From assembly GCF_054482525.1 (NCBI RefSeq), contig NZ_CM137006.1: 64,000 nucleotides of DNA; one strand, written 5' to 3'. The notes beneath the pieces are model-generated. The model saw only the letters and a program-made list of their open reading frames with translations. It did not search any database and was not told the DNA's origin. Below, piece after piece: positions 17,931-18,420 of the stretch. The position numbers and the translations under genes are program-made. The first letter of the stretch is position 1. Each line of letters begins with the position of its first letter.

Positions 17931-18420
17931 TCAAATAATTTCATTCCTTTTTAGTACTTCTTGTAACTTTGGTATCTGACATACAGCATCAGCAATCGCA
18001 CTGATATTCGCGGCATTATCCGAAACCATTCATGCCCCGGCCCCCATGTAGTTCAGGCGCGTCAGGAGCCCAACGCTCAGGGTAATCGGCGAAAGTGAAT
18101 GTTGGATAGACATTAGCAACCAGCCAGACCAATAGCCGTTGAAACTGCTGACGTTCGGCGCGCCCAACCGGTGGCGCAAGGTCCGGGCGACGATCGAGAA
18201 CCATCAATGCAATCGCCGCTGTCTCCGTCATAATCTCGTCATTTTCCAGCGCCAGTGTCGGAACCTGACACAACGGGTTCAGGGTTTTCAATAACTCGCG
18301 TGAAGCACCCTCGCGGTCAAAACCACTGACATCAACGAACTGATAAGGAATATCAGCCAGTGTTAGCATTAGCTCACTGATTGTAGAGCCCCATCCGGGT
18401 ACGCCATACACCTTAATCAT
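17931..18420 (-). pseudogene. yncG: Glutathione S-transferase-like gene, disrupted (internal deletion or frameshift)
   Basis: 134-aa ORF MIKVYGVPGWGSTISELMLTLADIPYQFVDVSG... has a GST N-terminal domain but stops early; a GST-like C-terminal end ...DNAANISAIADAVCQIPKLQEVLKRNEII* is encoded in another frame down to 17931. Confidence 0.55.

Follow-up and report, generated by a model that had tools for sequence, protein, structure and literature searches.

The closest described counterpart of the locus analyzed here is yncG (b1454) of Escherichia coli K-12, a gene of the glutathione S-transferase (GST) family. In K-12 it is an intact gene of 618 bp that encodes 205 amino acids; it is divergent from ansP, and yncH and the RhsE remnant come after it. 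Little is known about the function of K-12 YncG. Its over-expression raised the H2O2 MIC five-fold in an ASKA screen (PMC8228696), and an earlier report cited in the same paper found no GSH-dependent activity of YncG in a cell-free system. Judged from its sequence, intact YncG is a GST-superfamily protein, with a Pfam GST_N match above the cut-off and a sub-threshold GST_C match at residues 119-200. It is a beta-class-like cytosolic GST homologue whose best solved relatives are two beta-class enzymes, the Proteus mirabilis GST (1pmt, E = 1.4e-13) and GstA of E. coli (1a0f). With a score far under the NCBIfam GstA cut-off (62.7 versus 198 bits), it does not qualify as a GstA equivalog. An AlphaFold2 model of K-12 YncG, built from an alignment of 40 orthologues, has a mean pLDDT of 92.3 and the canonical fold, and it superimposes over its full length on solved bacterial GSTs with TM-scores of 0.76-0.81. 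In this model the thioredoxin-like domain (βαβαββα) spans residues 2-77, and the helices that come after it are α4 (88-112), α5 (123-142), α6 (157-167), α7 (172-178), α8 (180-190) and α9 (193-201).

The window (the whole stretch of 64,000 nucleotides analyzed here, to which all positions refer unless stated otherwise) carries a yncG orthologue at 18420..17931 on the minus strand, divergent from ansP. When window 17700-18500 was searched by megablast in 5426 complete E. coli genomes, the yncG locus was matched in 4617 of them, and the chromosome of strain PCN033 (NZ_CP006632.1) is a 100% match to the window. PCN033 is a porcine extraintestinal pathogenic E. coli (ExPEC) of serogroup O11 and phylogroup D that was sequenced on the Roche 454 GS-FLX platform at about 30x coverage (PMC4578781). 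The interval corresponds exactly to its RefSeq/PGAP pseudogene PPECC33_RS07915, labelled [quoted passage not shown] and flagged as pseudo and frameshifted. Downstream of yncG, the RefSeq annotation of PCN033 has yncH (DUF5445) as a frameshifted gene, vgrG as a pseudogene, and an RHS core gene. The yncG remnant is about 95% identical to K-12 yncG at the DNA level and is syntenic with it relative to ansP and yncH, so the match is not a matter of chance.

The window was aligned at the base level to yncG of K-12, to that of LHM10-1, which is the closest intact allele, and to other genomes carrying the same lesions (hereafter carriers). Compared with intact yncG it has lost 128 nt in total, consisting of a 127-bp deletion and a separate 1-bp deletion 29 nt further downstream (Table 1). 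In K-12 numbering the larger deletion begins at the second position of codon 124 and ends at the second position of codon 166; because 127 equals 42 × 3 + 1, it shifts the frame on its own. The first base past its junction, window position 18050, is a T, where intact alleles have a C. Since the 127-bp and then the 1-bp deletion each shift the frame, native yncG sequence is now spread over three frames. Codons 1-123, which according to the model map extend from the thioredoxin-like GST N-terminal domain through the linker and helix α4 to the α4-α5 loop, are read in the first of these and run into an 11-aa nonsense tail, LHGGRGMNGFG. The short native segment between the two lesions is currently read out of frame as ...LHGGRGMNGF, as a three-frame translation reveals. 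The remaining 3' portion, covering helices α8-α9 and the final two residues of α7 in the model map, lies in the third frame. The initial annotation had recognized a 134-aa ORF with a GST N-terminal domain, a GST-like C-terminal end in a different frame and a missing helical domain, and had attributed them to an internal deletion plus a frameshift. Alignment to intact orthologues, which it had proposed as a check, bears this out and maps the large deletion to K-12 coding nucleotides 371-497, with the refinement that two separate losses distribute the gene over three frames, not two. No microhomology or direct repeat fits the end-points of the 127-bp deletion, and no insertion sequence (IS) end is found at the junction. 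A second CCTGAAC within the deleted segment and GTTA repeats were considered as sources of the deletion and rejected, as their products would differ.

Table 1. Features of the yncG locus in the window, and yncG lesions in related genomes (coordinates in the last three rows are those of the respective locus)
Feature	Coordinates	Strand	Description and basis
134-aa ORF	18016..18420	-	GST N-terminal domain; ends ...APDAPELHGGRGMNGFG*
32-aa ORF	17931..18029	-	MVSDNAANISAIADAVCQIPKLQEVLKRNEII*; in a frame other than that of the 134-aa ORF
Retained codons 1-123	18052..18420	-	Pfam hits; colinear with K-12 and LHM10-1 yncG
127-bp deletion junction	18050..18051	-	K-12 CDS nt 371-497 gone (codons 124-166); alignments
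Codons 167-175 (TWGPGHEWF) and first base of codon 176	18022..18050	-	Three-frame translation
1-bp deletion	18021..18022	-	A lost, K-12 CDS nt 527 (TTTCAGG > TTTCGG); alignments
Premature TAA closing the 134-aa ORF	18016..18018	-	In the shifted frame, just past the 1-bp deletion
Codons 177-205 and original stop	17931..18021	-	DNAANISAIADAVCQIPKLQEVLKRNEII*, also the end of the 32-aa ORF; third frame, separate from the N-terminal ORF
ansP (L-asparagine permease)	18687..20186	+	Intact, divergent from yncG; fixes synteny
AT-rich spacer	16857-17930		35.5% GC, flanking genes 50-55% GC; holds only yncH' and short ORFs
yncH (DUF5445) homologue	17644..17834	-	Frameshifted pseudogene; PGAP annotation and alignment to K-12 yncH
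vgrG	14712..16820	-	In-frame stop at codon 592 (15045..15047); translation and annotation
ST2747 yncG	1205-1680		Additional frame-breaking 14-bp deletion CTCGATCGTCGCCC at codons ~75-79, on top of the shared deletion
23CRST032 yncG	1581-2106		Additional 36-bp tandem duplication at codons ~56-67, on top of the shared deletion
WP2-W18-ESBL-10 yncG	1581-2187		11-bp deletion and internal stop, otherwise full-length; ISAs1 element adjoins

The distribution of the lesion was determined with a 76-bp query that spans both deletions, at E ≤ 1e-20, a setting at which only contiguous matches pass. The junction is present in 37 of the 5426 complete E. coli genomes and is 100% identical in all of them; these carriers come from humans, dogs, chickens, lake water, seawater and a marsupial. 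The 127-bp segment itself is kept in 4457 of the 5426. The whole gene was inspected in six of the 37 carriers and the other 31 were compared at the 76-121-bp junction region; in all six whose annotation was inspected, the yncG coding sequence is flagged as a pseudogene. PCN033 was read on a platform prone to single-base indels, and its yncG could in principle be intact and only appear broken through an error of sequencing or assembly. We regard this as extremely unlikely: a loss of 127 bp is not an error type of 454 reads, the missing A lies outside any homopolymer, and the identical junction recurs in 36 further complete genomes from independent projects, among which the Californian human commensal SCU-102 shows two SNPs and no indel relative to the window over 18.8 kb. 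With an identical junction in 37 genomes and no indel in SCU-102, the lesion is not a 454 or assembly artefact; it is real and reproduced in independent assemblies.

The junction search of the 5426 genomes returned none with the 127-bp deletion but without the 1-bp deletion. Conversely, on the closest intact background neither the junction T nor the 1-bp loss occurs apart from the large deletion, the best full-length junction matches there being 98.0% identical over 101 bp, that is, one mismatch and one gap. The absence of any intermediate allele among the genomes searched indicates that the 127-bp deletion, the C>T change and the 1-bp loss are strictly linked, on the understanding that intermediates on more divergent backgrounds are indistinguishable by these searches. 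The combined junction is a clean marker for a small group of E. coli that includes the swine ExPEC strain PCN033.

The consequences for the protein can be read from the domain matches and the model. The 134-aa ORF scores above the cut-offs of three Pfam models of the GST N-terminal type, GST_N_2 (35 bits, cut-off 25), GST_N_3 (30.3, cut-off 22) and GST_N (25.2, cut-off 20.9), and all three matches correspond to the strands and helices at residues 2-77 of the model; it has no Pfam match to GST_C. Placed on the model, deletion of residues 124-166 takes out all of α5, the α5-α6 loop and nearly all of α6 (to residue 166). Among the 40 orthologues 74 alignment columns are invariant, and 12 of these fall within the deleted residues. 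They include T156, L157 and D159 of the sequence T156-L-V-D159, which aligns with TVAD of 1pmt and is lost from the window copy. We take this sequence to be the conserved N-capping box (S/T-x-x-D) with which α6 of GSTs begins; the GST capping box is a folding determinant. A contiguous, single-frame, all-helical C-terminal domain (α4-α9) is absent from yncG of the window and, because it would be devoid of helices α5-α9, the 134-aa product is predicted to be unable to form the two-domain GST fold.

Native coding information nevertheless remains in three frames over 490 bp, and one could imagine that a functional protein is made across these frames by programmed ribosomal frameshifting or another form of recoding. 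That prospect is vanishingly small, as 43 codons with their 12 invariant residues are physically missing and two shifts in different directions would be required. All orthologues are read in a single frame of 205-206 aa; a two-frame architecture is absent from them, and 127 bp of coding information is absent from the window copy. An Rfam scan of 16800-18700 identified no RNA family, leaving no such element to support recoding. Nor did a promoter and terminator scan of 17600-18700 yield any terminator; it found two promoter-like sites where 3.5 are expected by chance, and none of them lies in the spacer between ansP and yncG.

Outside of E. coli, yncG orthologues are found in Citrobacter, Enterobacter, Leclercia, Kosakonia and a few Salmonella, where they encode 205-206 aa with 70-82% identity and 100% coverage. 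The ORF of the window, at 134 aa, thus stands against a single ORF of 205-206 aa in the orthologues of five other genera. The initial annotation had held that orthologues with the same short architecture as an intact form would speak against a disrupted gene; what we found instead is the full-length form in the other genera and the short form as a pseudogene in the carriers inspected. Within E. coli and Shigella, including Shigella boydii, truncated YncG proteins of 87-177 aa make up a cluster of 1500 members, among them the exact 134-aa sequence, and frameshifted YncG forms of 198 aa represent further inactivated alleles. Taken together, the orthologue lengths and the numbers of truncated and retained copies lead us to conclude that yncG is full-length in the neighbouring genera and has been repeatedly lost in E. 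coli and Shigella, which adds to the evidence that the gene is dispensable.

It is also conceivable that the 134-aa product is a functional stand-alone protein with only the thioredoxin fold of the GST N-terminal domain, in which case the locus would represent neofunctionalisation and not loss. The native start and the upstream region are kept, the GST_N scores are above their cut-offs, the exact 134-aa sequence occurs on 396 public contigs, and the ORF with its native start is open in PCN033 and in four of the six carriers inspected. In ST2747 and 23CRST032, however, the ORF itself has been hit again, by the 14-bp deletion and the 36-bp duplication listed in Table 1; these added lesions fit neutral decay. 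Helix α4 and the 11-residue junk tail would, in the model, lack α5 and α6 to pack against, no orthologue of other genera has such an architecture, PGAP calls every copy inspected a pseudogene, and clonal descent explains the frequency of the sequence. We therefore consider a functional protein of this kind very improbable. Between the carrier sub-lineages, codons 1-123 show four non-synonymous and three synonymous differences; seven are too few for a measurement of selection, the more so as they are confounded by recombination.

The initial annotation also placed the disruption at the border of an island. The border part of this statement stands, since the yncG stop codon coincides with a boundary in both homology and base composition. 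For about 1040 genomes, the megablast homology to the window stops at the yncG stop codon (query position 568); LHM10-1 and WP2-W18-ESBL-10 diverge from the window in the final four yncG codons; and the GC content is 50.4% in the yncG remnant versus 35.5% in the 1.07-kb stretch that separates yncG from vgrG. The homology end, the allele divergence and the fall in GC together mark the 3' end of yncG as a real boundary of the variable region. The deletion, on the other hand, is not at this border: both of its end-points are internal to yncG, 87-120 bp away, and a causal link to the island is unlikely.

The genes beyond the border are decayed as well. Relative to K-12 yncH, the homologue in the window is one base short in a T-run near 17690, and indels and substitutions cluster at its 5' end; it is flagged as pseudo in all carriers inspected, and vgrG is a pseudogene in all carriers checked. 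Around its in-frame stop vgrG reads ...ALMQSS*IGLHKS..., and PGAP describes this same sequence as frameshifted (2108 nt) in PCN033 and as having an internal stop (2109 nt) in SCU-102; as there is no indel between the two genomes, the labels reflect an inconsistency of annotation. The RHS core gene is annotated as intact in PCN033 and SCU-102. In VTB96933v, a carrier of the other sub-lineage, it has a 14-bp insertion (window ~14011) and is annotated as frameshifted, and vgrG of VTB96933v has an extra 1-bp deletion (window 15338). Decay of the vgrG-rhs module thus differs between carriers.

Comparison of the window with VTB96933v reveals a mosaic structure. From 18100 to 27000 the two differ at about 235 sites (~2.5%), from 14100 to 18099 at only two, and dense differences appear again inside rhs at 11000-14000. 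On the yncG side the final SNP is found at 18100, at a distance of 49 bp upstream from the deletion. A block of about 4 kb is therefore shared by two otherwise diverged backgrounds, which implies at least one transfer of the dead allele by homologous recombination, or replacement of the flanks. On the other side of the locus, SNP patterns in ansP are mosaic among the window, MS1685, ST2747 and 23CRST032, with ST2747 matching the window in 18821-19169 and the others elsewhere, indicating several recombination tracts near ansP.

These observations bear on the possibility that the deletion was left behind when the adjacent vgrG-Rhs variable region was inserted, excised or recombined. Such an origin would suit the exact coincidence of the homology end with the yncG stop, the low GC content beyond it, and the position of the right edge of the near-identical ~4-kb block between 18100 and the deletion at 18051. 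We nevertheless consider it unlikely. Not only do both end-points fall within yncG, but the last 118 bp of the gene, and yncH, are still colinear with K-12; yncG is intact in K-12-type genomes with the same downstream neighbours; the junction shows no IS end, repeat or microhomology; and the edge of a recombination tract near a heterology would be expected anyway.

We conclude, with a probability of roughly 0.93, that the window carries a decayed and non-functional copy of yncG, the loss of function being deduced from the lesions. It is a unitary pseudogene, bearing a frame-disrupting lesion relative to intact syntenic orthologues, and it is lineage-specific, ordinary and already annotated as such in RefSeq. 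The following course of events would account for it, with the order and mechanism of the mutations deduced from the alignments. In an ancestor of the allele, a 127-bp internal deletion removed codons 124-166 and shifted the frame. The junction C>T and the downstream loss of the A may have arisen in the same error-prone event, or later. From the native start only the 134-aa product would then be made, in which the thioredoxin-like domain and helix α4 are followed by 11 junk residues, and the native α8-α9 coding sequence persists solely out of frame, as a remnant that is not translated. The lesion has been inherited within a lineage, and homologous recombination has probably carried the dead allele between backgrounds as well, the likely unit of transfer being the ~4-kb block with the 3' end of yncG, yncH' and vgrG', three genes that are all pseudogenes. 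We see only a slim chance, taken jointly, that the 134-aa fragment retains a residual role, for which GSH or thiol binding and interference with another GST are candidates, or that the ~4-kb block spread through a linked, selected Rhs/T6SS effector variant. Under the pseudogene reading, PCN033 presumably does without any contribution of yncG, and this loss is relevant only to studies of oxidative-stress phenotypes of the strain.

Compared with known systems, the window copy shares its place with K-12 yncG, which likewise has ansP divergent from it and yncH and an Rhs element after it. It differs from that orthologue in lacking nt 371-497 and A527, and it encodes residues 1-123 plus 11 junk residues where K-12 encodes 205. 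The other inactivated yncG alleles of E. coli and Shigella, of which WP2-W18-ESBL-10 is one, are independent losses of the same gene, their lesions and lineages being different; the combination of the 127-bp and 1-bp deletions is specific to the group of 37 genomes. The two-domain fold of P. mirabilis GST B1-1 (1pmt) and E. coli GstA (1a0f) is shared with intact YncG, whose model reaches TM-scores of 0.77-0.81 against these structures, yet the identity is only about 24%, and the position of Cys10 in the Proteus enzyme is occupied by Gly11 in YncG in the HMMER alignment. Set against these beta-class GSTs, the yncG copy of the window is without α5-α6 altogether.
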